The notes under the pieces are model-generated. The model saw only the letters and a program-made list of their open reading frames with translations. It searched no databases and was not told the DNA's origin. Position numbers and translations under genes: made by a program. From a virus, in the IMG/VR virus record IMGVR_UViG_3300017565_000003: 64,000 bases of DNA, one strand, 5' to 3'. Below are positions 13,448 to 21,568 of this stretch, piece after piece; position 1 is the stretch's first letter, and each line of letters opens with the position of its first letter.

Positions 13448-14497
13448 ATGATGGAGATGTTGACAAATGTTATTCAAATGACTCCACGAGGCGGAGATCC
13501 GAATGTGCTTGATCAAATAGAAAGATACTTACAGAACAAAGGAAACAAAAGTGAAAGAACAAAAGAGTCTTACGCAAGAGATATAAAAGAATTCTTTAAA
13601 GAAATAAGAAAAAAGGAAATTAGTCAACTATCAAGAGAAGATGTTCAATTAAAAATTGATGACTTTGAGGATTTTATTAATAAGAAATTGGACGAAGGCC
13701 AACTTAATAACAAAACGATTAACAGATGTGTTGGCACAGTAAAGACATTGTTAAAGTATCTTAACTCCAAAGGGATTGTAGATGATATATCCTTTTTACT
13801 TAATGGAAGCATTGTTAGATTACCTGAAGTTAAAAATAAATATGGAGCATTAACTGTAGCTGAAGTGAATGAATTGGCAGAATTAGCTCTACACGAAAGA
13901 GAAAAAGGAGAGATTAAAAGACTGTACTTTCTTTTTCTACTTGAAACGTGTGCAAGGAAAACAGCAGCGATGAATATGAAGTGGTCTAATTTTACTGAGA
14001 TCAATGAAAATGATGTTACACTAAGATATATAGATAAGGGCAATAAAGAATTTAAAATTAAGATAGCAAGATGGCTTTATAATGAATTATTAACCCTAAA
14101 AGTAGAAGGTGAGGAAAGAGTATTTAATCTTTCTGAAAATGCAATTCAAAATTCATTTACAAGAATAAAAAAGAAAATGAATATTAGAGAAGAGAGAAAC
14201 ATTGTTATACACAGTATACGTAAATGCGGTGCAACGTTTTTATTTTACAAGACAAATAACATATTGTTTGTTCAAAAGGTTCTTGGGCATACGAATGTAA
14301 ATGTAACCCAAGATTACATCGATGTTCAAGACTACGGTGTAATTGGTGCGGTGTCAACAGCGGGTGAAGTAGGAGTAGAAATCATTAATGAAGTTTCTCA
14401 TGAAGAGTTATTAGCTGCTATAAATTCTTTACCGAAAGACAATCAGCTTTTACTAGCTCTAAAAATCCAAGAATTAAATCAAAACTTGTCACAATAA
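13448..14497 (+). CDS. Tyrosine recombinase-fold protein, YopP/SroD-like
   Basis: N-terminal SAM-like domain; catalytic R (TCARK), K (DKG), HSIR, LGH, Y (QDY); first gene of yopP-Q-R-like operon. Confidence 0.8.
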   Translation: MMEMLTNVIQMTPRGGDPNVLDQIERYLQNKGNKSERTKESYARDIKEFFKEIRKKEISQLSREDVQLKIDDFEDFINKKLDEGQLNNKTINRCVGTVKTLLKYLNSKGIVDDISFLLNGSIVRLPEVKNKYGALTVAEVNELAELALHEREKGEIKRLYFLFLLETCARKTAAMNMKWSNFTEINENDVTLRYIDKGNKEFKIKIARWLYNELLTLKVEGEERVFNLSENAIQNSFTRIKKKMNIREERNIVIHSIRKCGATFLFYKTNNILFVQKVLGHTNVNVTQDYIDVQDYGVIGAVSTAGEVGVEIINEVSHEELLAAINSLPKDNQLLLALKIQELNQNLSQ

Positions 14498-14604
14498 GTC
14501 ATATAAATAAATTAATTAGAAAAATTAAGCAAACTTGTTTACAGAAGTATTCATAAATACTAAAATGAGAGTAGACATTTAAAAGTCATAGGAGTTGATA
14601 CAAG

Positions 14605-15951
14605 TTGGATACGCAAATAAAAAAAGATAAAAGTGAATTTATCAATGATCTTCAAGAAGTGTTTACACAAATTAAAGACAACAAGAAAATTACAGATAAA
14701 ATAAAAACTAACATGATGAAAGTATACAAAACGTTACCTGGTCGAGCACATGGTTATATTCATGGCATAGAAGCAATGAGAGAAGAAGACATTCAATACA
14801 TTGCACTATTGGCAGAACAAACTTATATAGTTACAGGTAAAAGTTTGTCTAATCCTTTAAACACATTAACTGAGCGAGAAATGAAAGAAATTAAATCTAA
14901 TTGGGAAGGTTATCAGTCAAAACAAGAGACTTTCCCTTATACTTTCAAGAATGTAATTAAAATAGCTGATGATGATTTTATTTGTTCAGTTGAAGCGAAA
15001 GATATTAACTACCTTTTTCTTAACGGGTTACTTGAATATAACCCAGAGACTCAACGTGAAGGTCGACAAGTAAAGAGCAGAGATAGTGAAGAGATTATAA
15101 CAGTTCCCAAAGTAATTGAGAAAAACGTAAAAGAAATGGTTGAACTATTAGAGAAAAATGAAATTATCAGTTCTATGATTACTTTCAATGCAAGATTAGG
15201 TACATCGGACAATGAATTAGGTGAGTTAGTTTACAATGAAGAAAATAAAACTTTAACAGTAACAGAAGGTACATTATTAGATGTACTAGATGGATTCCAC
15301 AGGATTAATGCCATAAGTAGAGCGCTAAGAAAAAACCCAAGTATTAATGCAATGTTCAAACTAAATATCTTAAACTACAACAAAAAGAGAGCTATAAAGT
15401 ATTTCTCCCAAATGAACAAAGGTCAAAGTGTTAGTGAATCTCACCTTAAGAAAATGTCTGAAACAAGATATGGCGACTTTATTGCCAAACAAGTACAAAG
15501 TAGTAGTCAATTGAGTGGTAAAGTTGCAGCAGGAGATCATATTTCACCTAACTCAGACTTATTAGTTACATTTAATACACTTTCTGATTCTATAGATGAA
15601 ATATTCAAAGTAGAGGATAGATCAACTGCTTTAAAAATTTCAGAGTATTTAACTGAATTTATTGATACATTATTTGATTGTTATCCAGAAGAATTCATTA
15701 AAGACATAGCTAAACAAAGAGAGAAGTCTTTAATGGGAAGTAATTCGTTTTTTAACGGATACATTAAACTTGCGAAGAATATGTATGATAATAAAATTAA
15801 ATTGAGAAAATTACCTAGTATACTAAATCAATTGGATTTTTCTAGAGATAATAAATTTTGGCAGGAAATAAATATAGTTGATTCGAATCAAAGAATTAAA
15901 TCAAATGCTAAAAGAGTAATTATTAGCGTATTCGATAAATTAGAATTGTGA
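14605..15951 (+). CDS. ParB/DndB-like protein, YopQ/SroE-like
   Basis: YNPETQR and VLDGFHR motifs; synteny between two integrase-fold genes. Confidence 0.75.
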   Translation: MDTQIKKDKSEFINDLQEVFTQIKDNKKITDKIKTNMMKVYKTLPGRAHGYIHGIEAMREEDIQYIALLAEQTYIVTGKSLSNPLNTLTEREMKEIKSNWEGYQSKQETFPYTFKNVIKIADDDFICSVEAKDINYLFLNGLLEYNPETQREGRQVKSRDSEEIITVPKVIEKNVKEMVELLEKNEIISSMITFNARLGTSDNELGELVYNEENKTLTVTEGTLLDVLDGFHRINAISRALRKNPSINAMFKLNILNYNKKRAIKYFSQMNKGQSVSESHLKKMSETRYGDFIAKQVQSSSQLSGKVAAGDHISPNSDLLVTFNTLSDSIDEIFKVEDRSTALKISEYLTEFIDTLFDCYPEEFIKDIAKQREKSLMGSNSFFNGYIKLAKNMYDNKIKLRKLPSILNQLDFSRDNKFWQEINIVDSNQRIKSNAKRVIISVFDKLEL

Positions 15952-15962
15952 GGTAACTAAAT

Positions 15963-16937
15963 ATGGCTGAAATGTACAATGAAGAAATTAAAAGAGAATT
16001 TTTAAAAGAATATCCAGAAAAAACTGCTGAGACATACAGTTACGTTTTTGCTAGAAGTAAAGATACAGAAGAGGTTATTGGGAGAGACTTATATACATTT
16101 TCAACAGATGAGATAGTAGACGTTTTAAAAAACTCTAATCACACAACTATAAATGCACTTAGACATACTTGGAATATTATAAAACTTTATTTAGATTGGT
16201 CTGCAAGATATAGAGGAAATAGCATTAATCAAGCAAAAAATATACCTATGGATGAATTAAGAAATTATCTAGACACGACTAAGAAACTATATTTAAATGA
16301 AGATGAAATAATTGATATTGAAGATAAAGCAGCTAATGCACAGGATATAGTTGCGGTTAGACTGATGTTTGAAGGCGTTGGAGGATTCCAAATGTCTGAA
16401 ATTTGTAATTTAAATTATAGTGATGTGGATTGGAACAATAATATATTAAAACTTAGAGATGTTAAATATGGTGAAAGAGAAGTAAAAGTAAGTGATAGAT
16501 GTATTTCGATTATGAAGAGTGCATATGGTCAACAAGTATACCTAAAAGGTAATGGGGAATCTAACGCTAGAAACCCAGAAGCACCTTTGCAAGAATCAGA
16601 CTATATAGTGAAAAATATTCAAACAGGATTAAATAAAAACTTTGATGGTGTAGATCGACATACTATGTATAGAAGAATTTCTACTTTAAGTGAATCGTTC
16701 AATTTACCATATTTAACTCCGAAAGGAATAGAAAAATCAGGTCAACTGTATATGGCCTACAAGTTATACAAAGAATCTGGAAAGTTAGATAATGAAGAAT
16801 TAGAAAAGATTGCAGAAAGATTTAACATGAGAAAAGTGAAGATTAACGGAGCTTATAGATACAATTTTACAACTATGAGAGAATATATAAACTTAGATAA
16901 CATAAATGATTTATATCCTACAGAAGAAACAGTATGA
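15963..16937 (+). CDS. Integrase-fold master repressor, YopR/MrpR/SroF-like
   Basis: MYNEEIKREFL start, L.FEG..G..MSEI.NL, LTPKGIEKSG; catalytic R and HxxR lost. Confidence 0.8.
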   Translation: MAEMYNEEIKREFLKEYPEKTAETYSYVFARSKDTEEVIGRDLYTFSTDEIVDVLKNSNHTTINALRHTWNIIKLYLDWSARYRGNSINQAKNIPMDELRNYLDTTKKLYLNEDEIIDIEDKAANAQDIVAVRLMFEGVGGFQMSEICNLNYSDVDWNNNILKLRDVKYGEREVKVSDRCISIMKSAYGQQVYLKGNGESNARNPEAPLQESDYIVKNIQTGLNKNFDGVDRHTMYRRISTLSESFNLPYLTPKGIEKSGQLYMAYKLYKESGKLDNEELEKIAERFNMRKVKINGAYRYNFTTMREYINLDNINDLYPTEETV

Positions 16938-16945
16938 TTATATAC

Positions 16946-16975
16946 TAGCTAATCCCCCATTCGGGATTAAGCTAC
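16946..16975 (+). terminator. Stem-loop after repressor operon
   Basis: TAGCTAATCCC-CCATTC-GGGATTAAGCTA. Confidence 0.55.
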
Positions 16976-17113
16976 TACATAAAAGTAAATTTAATTATAA
17001 TTAAGTGTTAAATAGTATCGAGAAAAGATATATGGTAAATGTATCTAATTAGGACTATTAGCCTGTGTTCTCGCTAGTCTTTAGCACCTAATCTCTGTTT
17101 TCGACAAAATCTG

Positions 17114-17251
17114 TCAAAGACAGGGTGTGTATTTTGTAGTATTATGATTACATAGCTCAAGAAGAAATTCACTGAAAAGTGAATCGAGAGGCACTATGGG
17201 AACGAACCCATAGCCAATACTACCTATAAGTTCGATTTCAACTTCAATCAT
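17114..17251 (-). CDS. Putative 45-aa protein (not in ORF track)
   Basis: MIEVEIELIGSIGYGFVPIVPLDSLFSEFLLELCNHNTTKYTPCL; AGGAGG 8 nt upstream; TGGTACAAT extended -10 near 17303-17312. Confidence 0.45.
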   Translation of the reverse strand: MIEVEIELIGSIGYGFVPIVPLDSLFSEFLLELCNHNTTKYTPCL

Positions 17252-17392
17252 CGGACTAGCCTCCTAGCCTTTAATGCCCAAGGAAAACATGCAACACTTA
17301 GTAATTGTACCAACTTTTACTAAAAAATAAAAGTATCTTTTTGTACTAGCAATTTTGATTTAAATTGGTTATAATTAGAATACGAACAAAAG

Positions 17393-17406
17393 GGAACAAA
17401 CGTTCT
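17393..17406. promoter_or_regulatory. LexA (SOS/Cheo) box
   Basis: GGAAC-AAAC-GTTCT, just downstream of TATAAT at 17370. Confidence 0.7.
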
Positions 17407-17464
17407 ATTTTAATTTAACATATAAAAATAGAACTCCTTAAAACGGAGAGAACAGGGGAGATTA

Positions 17465-17743
17465 ATGAAGTATTTATTTCAGGGTGGAGTCACATTGGAT
17501 TTCTTTTGCATGGTTGGAGGTGAGAATGCAGGGAAAGCAGAATATAATTTCCACAATGTAATTGATGTTAATAATTTGCAGGTACAGGGAATTTTGGTAA
17601 AAGGATCTGACGGTAAACTACATATGTTAGGTATCGAAGATTCTAATCTAGAAGTTGATTCAGTAGTTGAAGTTGACGAAGATACACCTAAAAAGTATCG
17701 AGACTACCAAGTTGGGAGCTTAGTAGTCAATACGATTGTTTAA
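17465..17743 (+). CDS. Hypothetical acidic protein, probably SOS-inducible
   Basis: GGGGAG RBS; LexA box upstream. Confidence 0.7.
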   Translation: MKYLFQGGVTLDFFCMVGGENAGKAEYNFHNVIDVNNLQVQGILVKGSDGKLHMLGIEDSNLEVDSVVEVDEDTPKKYRDYQVGSLVVNTIV

Positions 17744-17823
17744 GTAAAACTTATGTATGTTGTAATCTCACTTACAAGTTTAATTCTAATGATGTTGAGA
17801 TAAGTTATCAACGAAAAGTTGGT

Positions 17824-17907
17824 TTTCGGCATCACTACAAAACACCGCAAAATGTACACACGAAAATTTGTAGTGGTTTTGCGGTAGTTAGTAAAAAAGA
17901 ACTACAA
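17824..17907. promoter_or_regulatory. Cluster of ComA-like half-sites upstream of the comX-comP operon
   Basis: TTTCGG 17824, CTACAA 17835, CCGCAA 17845, TTGTAG 17868, TTGCGG 17879, CTACAA 17902. Confidence 0.4.
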
Positions 17908-17991
17908 AACTATTAAAATCTTATTTTAAAATTAACTAATCTATAGTAATATTAATATAATCCTATAGATTGTAAGAAGGGAATATTTCTT

Positions 17992-18162
17992 ATGAGAATA
18001 GGTAGAATAATAGCTCATTTAATCAATAATGAGGAAGAGACAGTAGCAATATTGTTTGGTATGGCATCTTTACTTAATGTTGATGAAGATGAGTTAGAAG
18101 CAATAAAACAAGTTTTATCCTATGATCCAAAATCTTATTTAATGGAGGAATCGTTAAGATGA
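17992..18162 (+). CDS. ComX-like precursor lacking the C-terminal Trp (56 aa, not in ORF track)
   Basis: MRIGRIIAHLINNEEETVAILFGMASLLNVDEDELEAIKQVLSYDPKSYLMEESLR; ComX leader pattern; AAGGGA RBS; ATGA overlap with next gene. Confidence 0.65.
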   Translation: MRIGRIIAHLINNEEETVAILFGMASLLNVDEDELEAIKQVLSYDPKSYLMEESLR

Positions 18163-18323
18163 ACAAAGTAATTGAACATTTATTGAGCAATCCGCAAGAA
18201 GCCTTAGCTGTAGCAGAAGGTAAAGCAATGCCAGTAGAACGCTTAAGTGCAAAAGAACTTTTACAAGTTGTAAGAACTGTAAGCACTGAAAAAGGTTCTA
18301 ACTTTATGAAATACTGGGGTTAA
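18159..18323 (+). CDS. comX: ComX pheromone precursor (54 aa, not in ORF track)
   Basis: MNKVIEHLLSNPQEALAVAEGKAMPVERLSAKELLQVVRTVSTEKGSNFMKYWG; ComX size and leader pattern, near-terminal Trp, GGAGG RBS, directly upstream of comP. Confidence 0.8.
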   Translation: MNKVIEHLLSNPQEALAVAEGKAMPVERLSAKELLQVVRTVSTEKGSNFMKYWG

Positions 18324-18330
18324 TGGTTAA

Positions 18331-20619
18331 ATGAAAGAGAGAAAATGGTTTAACTTATTTACAGTGTTAATCGTGGCTGCGGTCACTTTAACACTGTATT
18401 TTTCTTATATAATACTAAATTATGATTATATCGGTGCAATGGCCATAATTGAAGATGATAAAGTTACTATTGGAGCAACTGAGCCCCTTACATGGTCATC
18501 TGATAATTTAAATGTTGGTGATGAAATACTTTTAGTTGATGGAAAAGATCCTCTAGAAAATGCCATTATTCAAAAATGGAATATGCTTGAACAAGTAAAG
18601 CATTTAGAGGTTCTTAGTATAGATGGAACAAAAGAAAGCCTTATAGTCGAAGGTAAGTTTGATGGACAAATAGTATTTCACTTTATTGTCCCAATAGCTA
18701 TTTTGATTTTAAGTTTATATTGTAGTTATCTTATATATAAGAGTTATAGAAAGTCAGAGAATTCTGCTGAATCAGCATTGCTGTTAATAGCGTTTTTACT
18801 AACATTTTCTTTAGCTTATATGTGTGGGGGAGCTTCAGCAAGAGGAGATTTATTTTCAAGAACTCTTGTTGTCCCTTTATTACTAGCAACCCCAATACTT
18901 TATTTGCAATTTATGCGAAGATACTATGAGGAAATGAATACTAGATGGTTCAGTAAGTATTGGATATGGGGATGTTATGTACTATTACCAATCAATATAG
19001 TTCTGAGTCTTCTAAGTGGATCTATTAGTTTACCTGGTACTTTAGTTAAACTTATTAACCTTTCAAGTGCTCTGATTGTATTCTTGTTATGCGGTGTTTT
19101 AATATTAACTGGGTTAAAGAAAGTAAAATACAAAACGCAAAAATATATGATAAGAGTATTACTTTTATCTAATATTCTTGCTTTTGCTCCTTTTGTTCTA
19201 TTGTATGTTTTACCATTCGTATTATTTAAAATTGAGATTGTTTCACCTGCATTTCTTACTGGATTCTTGATTATAATACCTTTTTCATTAGTTTATCAAT
19301 TCTTAGCCACGAAAATTTACGATATTGAATTTATTGTTGGTAGGTTTAAGTATTACAGCTTATTAATAACAGTTCCATCCATAATAGCAGTGGCAATTAC
19401 AATGACTGTAGCAACAACCAATTCTACCGTATTCTCTATTAGAATGTTCCTTGTGTTGTTTGGCGTAATGTTTGGAACGCTGTATCTAAAAGAAGTGTTG
19501 GACTACAGATTTAAGCTGAATAAAGTATCTGAGAAAGCAAATTATCAAGACAGGTTGACTGCTTATACTAGAAAGATAAGGGTGGCAAGAAATATCGAGG
19601 AAGTTTCAACTTTACTAAAACAGAATATTACTGACACTATGCTTGTTACCAAGGCGCACAGAGTAAAGTATGATAAAAGCAAAGGAACCTATAAGAGCAA
19701 TACATTCTTGGAGGTTGGTAATGAAGATTATCAACAAGTCTTTAATCAAGCAACTAAAACCCTCGGAGAAATTGTTGAACTAGATAATGGATTTGTTTTA
19801 AATATAGGGGAAACAAGAGGGGATGTTTATTTAATAATAGCTTTATCAGATATTAACACTCCTAAATTAACAAGAGATGAAAAGCAATGGTTGAACAATT
19901 TGGCCTATTATACAAATGTGACTCTTGAGAACTTCATTAAAATTGAAAACTTAATGGATAATCTGGAGGAGCTTGAAAATAATCCTATATGGCTTAATAA
20001 GATTGTTTTTAATCTTGAGGAAAAGCAGCGTTCTAGTTTAGCGAAAGATCTACATGATGCCGTACTACAAGATTTAATTGGATTGAGAAGAAGGATGGAA
20101 ACTCTCTATTTAAAACGAATTCCTACAATGGATGAAGAAACTGAAAGAGAGATCAATAGCTTTATTGTAGGTATGACTGATGCAATTGAAACAACTAGAA
20201 AGACATGTAACGAATTAAGACCACATTTATTATATGATCTAGGCATTGAAAAAGCTTTGAATAAGCTTGCAGATGAACATAATAAAGATGGTCAAAACGT
20301 CATTCTTACAACAAATAACCTAGATAGTTCAATTAGCGAAGAAGTACAATTAAATATTTATAGAATTGCACAAGAACTCCTTAACAACGCAGAAAAGCAT
20401 TCTTTTGCTAAAACAGTTAGATTAGTTGCTGTTAAGATAAAGGAAAAAGTTGTACTTCACTATGAGGATGACGGTGAAGGTGAAGATTTAGAGTATATTC
20501 TTAACAAAGAGGGAAGTATGGGACTGTCCGGTATTAGAGAAAGGGTTCGCATACTTAATGGTGATATTAAAATAGAGACAGAGCCAGGACAAGGATTTAA
20601 AGTTATAGTTGAAATTTAG
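18331..20619 (+). CDS. comP: ComP-like sensor histidine kinase
   Basis: 762 aa; N-terminal TM, PDZ-like loop (LNVGDEILLVDG), polytopic TM region, HisKA_3 H-box KDLHDAVLQ, N-box ELLNNAEKHS, EDDGEG, GSMGLSG. Confidence 0.88.
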   Translation: MKERKWFNLFTVLIVAAVTLTLYFSYIILNYDYIGAMAIIEDDKVTIGATEPLTWSSDNLNVGDEILLVDGKDPLENAIIQKWNMLEQVKHLEVLSIDGTKESLIVEGKFDGQIVFHFIVPIAILILSLYCSYLIYKSYRKSENSAESALLLIAFLLTFSLAYMCGGASARGDLFSRTLVVPLLLATPILYLQFMRRYYEEMNTRWFSKYWIWGCYVLLPINIVLSLLSGSISLPGTLVKLINLSSALIVFLLCGVLILTGLKKVKYKTQKYMIRVLLLSNILAFAPFVLLYVLPFVLFKIEIVSPAFLTGFLIIIPFSLVYQFLATKIYDIEFIVGRFKYYSLLITVPSIIAVAITMTVATTNSTVFSIRMFLVLFGVMFGTLYLKEVLDYRFKLNKVSEKANYQDRLTAYTRKIRVARNIEEVSTLLKQNITDTMLVTKAHRVKYDKSKGTYKSNTFLEVGNEDYQQVFNQATKTLGEIVELDNGFVLNIGETRGDVYLIIALSDINTPKLTRDEKQWLNNLAYYTNVTLENFIKIENLMDNLEELENNPIWLNKIVFNLEEKQRSSLAKDLHDAVLQDLIGLRRRMETLYLKRIPTMDEETEREINSFIVGMTDAIETTRKTCNELRPHLLYDLGIEKALNKLADEHNKDGQNVILTTNNLDSSISEEVQLNIYRIAQELLNNAEKHSFAKTVRLVAVKIKEKVVLHYEDDGEGEDLEYILNKEGSMGLSGIRERVRILNGDIKIETEPGQGFKVIVEI

Positions 20620-20648
20620 GAGCTGCTTATGCAGTTCTTATTTTTTTG
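20619..20648 (+). terminator. Rho-independent terminator after comP
   Basis: GAGCTGC-TTAT-GCAGTTC followed by T-run. Confidence 0.75.
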
Positions 20649-20668
20649 GTTAAATATGAAAATAGTTG

Positions 20669-20697
20669 TTTACAAAGATAAACTTATCTATTATTAT
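20669..20697 (+). promoter_or_regulatory. SigA promoter with palindromic operator in the spacer
   Basis: TTTACA-17-TATTAT enclosing AGATAAACTTATCT. Confidence 0.7.
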
Positions 20698-20885
20698 ATA
20701 GTTAAGAAGTTAATAAAAGGAAGGTTTTATCTTAATTTTCTTCGTGGAAAACGGAGGAAATGGAAGTATACGTGAGAATGAGGGAGGTGTGAAATGGATT
20801 TTAATGATATTAGAGAAATTGTAGATCCTGTTGAAGGATTGTGTTATGAAAATATTGAAAACATTAAAAAGAGAGAGGGAACGCA

Positions 20886-21104
20886 ATGAATCAAGCGATA
20901 GGTAGATATAAAGTTTTTTATAAAAGTCCTAAAGACACTAACCAGAGACAAAATGGTTCGTATGAAAATAAATTGCTTATATTCGAAGGGGAAATAGAAA
21001 ATTTTGTTACAAACGGAAATAATTTATGTGCTTTTAGAAATGAGGAGAATGAAGTATTATTAGTAAATTTTGCAGATATTGTTCAAATGTCGCCTATCAG
21101 TTGA
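20886..21104 (+). CDS. Hypothetical protein
   Basis: GAGGGA RBS. Confidence 0.6.
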   Translation: MNQAIGRYKVFYKSPKDTNQRQNGSYENKLLIFEGEIENFVTNGNNLCAFRNEENEVLLVNFADIVQMSPIS

Positions 21105-21169
21105 GGTGAAATCATGATATATCCATTTAGAAGAAGATGTTAATTTATTTGAATTAGGGGTGTGAAATA

Positions 21170-21568
21170 ATGAGTAATAAAGAAGTTAAGTACAGAGCTT
21201 ATATAAAAGAAACTAACCAAGTTGTAGATGTGGAAGCTATTTACCTTGCCTTGGGTTCTCAAAGTGGGAAAGATATAGTCGCTTTAGGAAATTGGTATTC
21301 GATTGAAGAGGTTGAGTTATTACAATTTACAGGATTAAAAGATGAGAGCAATAAAAATATATATGAAGGAGACATTGTTTGCGAAACTTATGAAGGTGTT
21401 CGTGATATAGGATTGGTGTATTTTTCTGAAGGTATGTTTAAAGTTAATTTTCAGAGTACTGAGGATTTTGCTTTATCAGGATGCGACTTAGAGCAAACAG
21501 AGGTAATTGGGAATGTATTTATGGAAAAAGAGAAGTACAAGGATTTATATGAGTTTTATATTTTGTAA
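21170..21568 (+). CDS. yopX: YopX family protein
   Basis: KYRAY, QFTGLKD..KNIYEGDI, EVIGN motifs. Confidence 0.85.
   Translation: MSNKEVKYRAYIKETNQVVDVEAIYLALGSQSGKDIVALGNWYSIEEVELLQFTGLKDESNKNIYEGDIVCETYEGVRDIGLVYFSEGMFKVNFQSTEDFALSGCDLEQTEVIGNVFMEKEKYKDLYEFYIL

Follow-up and report, generated by a model that had tools for sequence, protein, structure and literature searches.

Sequence comparison identifies the 56-aa product of X1, the first gene of a three-gene cassette in a large temperate phage, as a real, constrained paralogue of the pheromone precursor ComX that contains no tryptophan (Trp). X1 belongs to a small family of Trp-less ComX genes that in the loci compared are always paired with a true ComX gene (X2) and a comP gene. 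The X1-X2-comP cassette lacks a ComQ prenyltransferase and a ComA response regulator, and judging from its distribution it is mobile, passing between large temperate phages and chromosomes. As for its role, we tentatively favor action at the resident ComQ, where X1 would be a pseudo-substrate that cannot be prenylated or an adaptor, a reading that we consider possible but put somewhat below an even chance. ComQXPA is a textbook Gram-positive quorum-sensing system. Trp is the defining acceptor residue of ComX, the one that is isoprenylated (PMC4008528, PMC5331326).

The DNA under study (the window) is the whole stretch of 64 kb, and the features of its cassette are collected in Table 1. On re-reading of the sequence, the X1 frame has 56 codons, zero Trp codons and the C-terminus ...SYLMEESLR; an earlier note on this DNA had given the length, the lack of Trp, the C-terminus and a leader string, all of them correctly. 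The same note placed X1 in the position of comQ, which holds for gene position only, as the homology is to comX and not to comQ. The TGA stop of X1 overlaps the ATG of X2. A comparable Shine-Dalgarno-like site precedes the conserved MR[I/L]G start in all homologous loci, including those that start with TTG. Eight metagenomic contigs, of up to 162,659 bp, carry the gene without a single difference, and an Rfam search found no RNA family within positions 16500-21500.

Table 1 Features of the X1-X2-comP cassette in the window.
Feature	Position	Strand	Description or basis
ComA-type half-sites CCGCAA (17845-17850) and TTGCGG (17879-17884), 5' of the operon	17845..17884	+	Sequence
Promoter-like TTAACT-18-TATAAT upstream of X1	17932..17961	+	Consensus scan, 10/12 positions; pattern match only
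AAGAAGGGA, Shine-Dalgarno-like, of X1	17974..17982	+	Sequence
X1	17992..18162	+	56-aa Trp-less ComX paralogue, gene 1 of the cassette
X2	18159..18323	+	54-aa ComX-type precursor, C-terminus KYWG; ATGA overlap with X1, translationally coupled
ComP-type membrane histidine kinase	18331..20619	+	HisKA_3 + HATPase_c, 762 aa
Terminator-like hairpin and T-run, operon end	20617..20650	+	Closes the operon

The likeness of X1 to ComX is beyond chance although weak for the single sequence, and it becomes clear because the family profiles match. Against Pfam PF05952, X1 alone scored 18.5 bits (E 0.0019) and X2 alone 17.6 bits (E 0.0034), both below the gathering score of 25, and BLASTP found no similarity between X1 and the neighboring X2. 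With profiles (hhalign), the X1 family matched 12 canonical Metabacillus ComX proteins over the leader at 94.5% (E 8e-8) and the X2 family at 97.2% (E 3e-11), and X2 matched canonical ComX at 97.1%. HMMs of X1, X2 and canonical ComX recognized one another and no other open reading frame in 514 kb of loci; exactly one ComX was found per canonical locus and exactly X1 plus X2 per cassette locus. Compared with ComX of Bacillus comQXPA (PF05952), X1 shares the length class (56 aa in a class of 52-73 aa), the helical leader I..L..NP / G.ASLL.V and the location on the same strand 5' of comP with only X2 in between. Unlike ComX, it stays under the Pfam threshold, lacks a Trp in about the final 5-10 residues, does not lie directly 3' of comQ, and is followed by a second ComX gene. 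The NCBI pipeline labels the X1 of Bacillus kexueae 'competence pheromone ComX', and a feature search of the ESM Atlas with X1 returned ComX at 0.78, which we take as a lead only. PHROGs and NCBIfam hold no family for X1 or X2. AlphaFold2 predicted the X1 monomer as three helices with a short tail helix (mean pLDDT 74), and this model had no match in the PDB at E 0.001 or better with Foldseek. A division of labor in which X1 keeps the canonical leader and X2 only the core was dropped, as the Metabacillus arenae X2 has ASLLGV and its X1 does not.

A word-based homologue search with the single X1 protein returned only itself. When 1.84 billion representative proteins were searched exhaustively with phmmer, five small proteins proved to be true relatives, and a search by profile enlarged the family to 14 proteins of 43-82 aa, none of which (0/14) contains Trp; two long phmmer matches, P0004 with ankyrin repeats and P0006 with BRC-like repeats, were rejected as compositional. 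The start is conserved as MR[I/L]G..I..HL, TTG-start loci included, and that of one relative (L007) had been mis-called 10 codons short. Amino-acid conservation extends over the first ~44 residues among loci whose ComPs are only 46-62% identical. For pairs with unsaturated dS, dN/dS of X1 was 0.15 (L019-L006), 0.30 (window-L007) and 0.35 (L006-L007), and for the L019-L006 pair the values of X2 and ComP were 0.11 and 0.08. By this measure X1 is under purifying selection about as strong as that on X2. The tails after helix 3 behave differently: they are acidic, hydrophilic and of unequal length, with no residue common to the whole family. A DPKS[Y/F] motif is conserved within the phage clade only, and the ME[E/D/G] in the tails of that clade corresponds to ATGGAGG, the ribosome-binding site of X2. 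Neither Tyr nor any other aromatic residue is conserved among the tails of the 14 members, and in the same loci the X2 tail stays YW[G/Q/T], with YW invariant across the X2 family. Since the X1 tails vary, carry no conserved Tyr and encode in ME[E/D/G] the X2 ribosome-binding site, the comparison argues that the function of X1 resides in its leader. The Trp-less ComX paralogue proposed in the earlier note is thus borne out by profile homology, by its retention in related loci and by purifying selection, including the conservation and dN/dS comparison (0.15-0.35) which that note had called for. Its suggestion that X1 might be modified at another residue such as Tyr we rejected as a family-wide feature.

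The order X1, X2, comP is kept in the window, in seven fetched loci (L006, L007, L019, L059, L008, L023, L014) and on a JGI contig, with stop and start codons overlapping or within 2 nt. At least four related genomes of SPbeta-like phages or prophages carry the cassette. Among these are a phage-like MAG contig with the same upstream recombinase, DndB and MrpR genes (L006), a 157-kb phage-like contig (L059) and L019, on a 787-kb contig of Metabacillus sp. Hm71, which is most simply a prophage because the same phage genes surround the cassette. It also lies in plain chromosomal surroundings, between yneT/plsY and parE/parC in B. kexueae (L008) and in M. arenae (L023); L014 represents a further metagenomic lineage. 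A ComP profile scan of one genome per species gave 30 ComP loci, nearly all from Metabacillus, with canonical comQ-comX-comP in 26/30 and ComX there ending [Y/F]W-x. In a quick, unrooted maximum-likelihood tree with long branches, a branch with an SH-aLRT support of 100% set the six cassette ComPs apart from those of 28 canonical comQXP loci. Elsewhere among viruses, the module had no blastn match in 50,697 phage records, where tblastn with the window ComP met kinase cores only (25-31% identity), and IMG/VR contained no relative of this ComP. In the literature searched, neither a Trp-less ComX paralogue nor a comX-comP pair of a phage came up.

The window belongs to a large temperate phage of Metabacillus type that encodes a DnaB-type helicase, a DNA polymerase, a ribonucleotide reductase, YopX and HNH nucleases, with all large open reading frames on one strand. 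Its nearest named phage is Psychrobacillus phage Perkons, through a DNA segment of 68% identity. Directly 5' of the module (13448-16937) lie genes for a tyrosine recombinase, a DndB-like protein (phrog_5732) and an MrpR-like recombinase-fold protein (phrog_5830). This trio is kept in L006, L019 and L059, where a divergent HTH_3 gene separates it from a 92-aa acidic open reading frame without family match. The latter (17465-17743 in the window) lies directly 5' of X1 in all phage-type loci (L006, L019, L059, L060) and is missing from the chromosomal cassettes.

Neither the 64-kb window nor the fetched phage loci contain a polyprenyl-synthase-like (ComQ) or ComA-like open reading frame, and the chromosomal cassettes of M. 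arenae and B. kexueae are likewise always without adjoining comQ or comA. Each of these two genomes has three PF00348 genes. The third is divergent and ComQ-like, and lies directly 5' of a NarL/LuxR-type response regulator gene and 3' of a DegQ-like gene of 46-49 aa. The ancestral locus is here degQ-comQ-comA, with comX-comP gone and X1-X2-comP on another contig; from the gene content, the native signal-receptor pair looks as if it had been replaced by the mobile one. In both genomes comQ is intact, and invariant catalytic Asp/Asn, FARM and pseudo-SARM columns show the enzyme to be still under selection. The comQ of B. kexueae, M. arenae and Hm71 alike is unlinked to the cassette, and Hm71 combines one canonical comQXP locus with the prophage cassette. 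Since the cassette has neither gene and two chromosomes keep degQ-comQ-comA, it would rely on a resident ComQ and ComA encoded at unlinked sites. Boxes close to the ComA consensus (TTGCGG-N4-CCGCAA, 1 mismatch) lie 147-183 bp 5' of X1 in L006, L019 and L007 and account for 3/5 of such boxes in the 514 kb of fetched loci. With the tandem boxes of L006 (7854-7904) and L019 (3519-3569) and the L007 box (216-231) taken together, the distances span 112-183 bp. Their placement suggests ComA-dependent autoinduction of the cassette in related phages. The window has no full ComA box, and its matches with up to 3 mismatches occur at chance level; after an apparent insertion this phage is left with half-sites only.

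To model the contact with ComQ, we paired the ComQ of Hm71 with the X1 of its own prophage (61% identical to the window X1), each given as an alignment. The pair reached an ipSAE of 0.79 (runs 0.80, 0.76 and 0.79) against 0.02 for the best control, a mark reached by 58/80 solved complexes and 2/110 mismatched pairs. Contacts agreed to at least 91% across runs and partner pLDDT was at least 77. In the model, X1 helices 1 and 3 pack on the C-terminal helices of ComQ (residues 224-231 and 258-283), and the tail PK.FM..I contacts D200, F203, R204 and F207 of the NDFRD pseudo-SARM; the ASLLNV motif of helix 2, which is the best conserved in X1, stays outside the interface. The pseudo-SARM has been reported as the ComX-acceptor-binding motif (PMC10853753). 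Since the PDB holds no ComQ or ComX structure (also PMC13731918), the result is not the recall of a solved complex, but it may only show likeness, because X1 is paralogous to the true substrate of ComQ. On this prediction X1 probably still docks on ComQ; the structural check suggested in the earlier note thus speaks, at the level of a model and for a prophage relative and its lysogen, for binding to a host ComQ. In vitro, full-length ComX is a ~10-fold better ComQ substrate than the C-terminal dodecapeptide, which indicates that the leader contributes to recognition, although it is not essential (PMC5331326). Given that ComQ also acts in vitro on short peptides that lack the leader, docking through the leader may be weak in the cell.

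We propose that a comX tandem duplicate diverged into X1 by losing the prenyl-acceptor Trp while keeping the helical ComX leader. X1 would then be co-translated with the true precursor X2 from a cassette without a prenyltransferase or response regulator of its own, which would use the resident ComQ for the maturation of X2 and the resident ComA for the response. Inside the producer cell, leader helices 1 and 3 would dock on the C-terminal helices of ComQ and place the Trp-less tail in the acceptor site, making X1 a pseudo-substrate without turnover. Depending on relative affinities, it could throttle or tune the prenylation of ComX-type precursors of host and cassette, or help a non-cognate ComQ to accept X2. 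In its effect on pheromone output, X1 may titrate, tune or retarget ComQ. RiPP leader peptides acting in trans and pseudo-substrate inhibitors are related concepts, in that a leader-bearing peptide binds the modifying enzyme without being a productive substrate. For ComQ/ComX, we found in the literature no natural, separately encoded, core-defective precursor paralogue. A point against action at ComQ is that a cassette would gain no obvious advantage from encoding an inhibitor of its own signal's maturation. The earlier note had cast X1 as a candidate ComQ decoy or adaptor that may jam host pheromone production or favor the phage peptide. The decoy or adaptor is still the leading idea, but the phage-against-host framing stands only in part: X1 is no phage invention aimed at the host, because the M. 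arenae and B. kexueae chromosomes keep it with no resident pheromone to jam. A fuller version sees in X1 a dedicated ComQ pseudo-substrate or adaptor that has spread horizontally. With it, the comQ-less comX-comP cassette, which SPbeta-like phages carry and some chromosomes have captured, would commandeer the resident prenyltransferase, switch the pherotype of the cell to its own channel and, in lysogens, suppress host ComX output. As a whole, this version seems rather doubtful to us.

X1 might instead be a second exported signal precursor, whose leader directs processing and export and whose released Trp-less tail, unmodified or otherwise modified, serves as a co-signal or antagonist sensed by ComP. 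Its precursor architecture of conserved leader and variable C-terminal tail, its coupling to X2 and comP, and the DPKS[Y/F] motif of the phage clade would fit such a role. We nevertheless regard it as unlikely, given that the acidic, hydrophilic tails of unequal length share no residue outside that clade and no aromatic, that X2 keeps YW[G/Q/T] in the same loci, that tail conservation is partly that of the X2 ribosome-binding site and start, and that known ComP ligands require isoprenyl-Trp (PMC5331326). If X1 stays inside the cell, its partner could also be something other than ComQ, in which case X1 would be a small regulator in the cytoplasm that acts on ComP or on the ComX-maturing protease or exporter. 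The predicted co-transcription with ComP and inheritance with it as a unit point this way, as does the invariant helix-2 motif left unused in the ComQ model; the ComX protease and exporter are themselves unknown (PMC10853753). The sole interaction modeled, that with ComQ, scored high with clean controls, and we rate a regulator of this kind as quite improbable.

X1 could, finally, have no protein function of its own and be a decaying comX duplicate, kept as an upstream reading frame from which ribosomes reach X2 by translational coupling. In every locus, X2 has its ribosome-binding site and start inside X1 or at its end, and the sub-threshold Pfam score would suit decay. Against this stand the ~44 conserved N-terminal residues at ComP identities of 46-62%, the dN/dS of 0.15-0.35, the retained MR[I/L]G start, the predicted three-helix monomer (pLDDT 74) and the confident ComQ interface, which together make it very unlikely. 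Action of X1 at the resident ComQ thus remains the reading that we prefer.

Phage-borne quorum sensing has known forms in the arbitrium genes aimP/aimR of SPbeta-like phages and the agr genes of Clostridioides phage phiCDHM1. In both, a temperate phage carries signal and receptor genes with their own signal-maturation logic, and the phiCDHM1 agr set, like the present cassette, comes without a response regulator. The cassette differs from them in leaving the modifying enzyme to the host and in adding an extra, non-modifiable precursor paralogue. With the canonical degQ-comQ-comX-comP-comA loci of Metabacillus it shares a genus-level gene pool, ComP at 42-48% identity and the ComX leader motif; in those loci a single comX, ending [Y/F]W-x, follows comQ directly, whereas the cassette has two comX paralogues, no comQ and a ComP of a separate lineage. 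PalQ-PalX-PalP of Paenibacillus alvei is another kinase-linked system with a Trp-prenylated RiPP signal whose leader domain enhances prenylation, but PalX combines an NHLP leader with a C-terminal Trp, the cluster itself includes the prenyltransferase, and no Trp-less paralogue is reported for it (PMC10853753). Censuses of ComQXPA required a C-terminal Trp to call ComX (PMC4008528), which is why conserved Trp-less paralogues would have been missed. If X1 acts at ComQ, it would provide a natural handle on ComQ substrate recognition, where no structure exists, and would show mobile elements hijacking or re-keying host pheromone channels and a RiPP precursor evolving into an enzyme regulator. If the fuller reading, with the resident prenyltransferase commandeered, were true, X1 would be the first natural RiPP precursor paralogue to regulate its modifying enzyme, and phages would gain a ComX-based communication line in place of arbitrium.

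Several loci have features of their own. Between comQ and comA, comX and comP are cleanly absent in B. kexueae (L018, 612-2746) and M. arenae (L057, 988-3050), and the sole comP among the fetched loci of each genome is the unlinked cassette comP. Metabacillus fastidiosus (L042, 3553-7125) has degQ-comP-comA without comQ or comX, and its genome has no ComQ-like third polyprenyl synthase; from this gene content, its ComP/ComA pair may be signal-blind or eavesdropping. The first extracytoplasmic loop of ComP carries a GD.I/V.LV.G..P pattern in the window (18331-18700), L008 (6327-8630) and L013 (2355-2600). Precomputed matches of the B. kexueae ComP to PDZ/PDZ_6 are weak or faint, and Pfam gives none for the window ComP; a PDZ-like module that binds C-terminal peptides would, in a sensor, fit a ligand ending in YWG.
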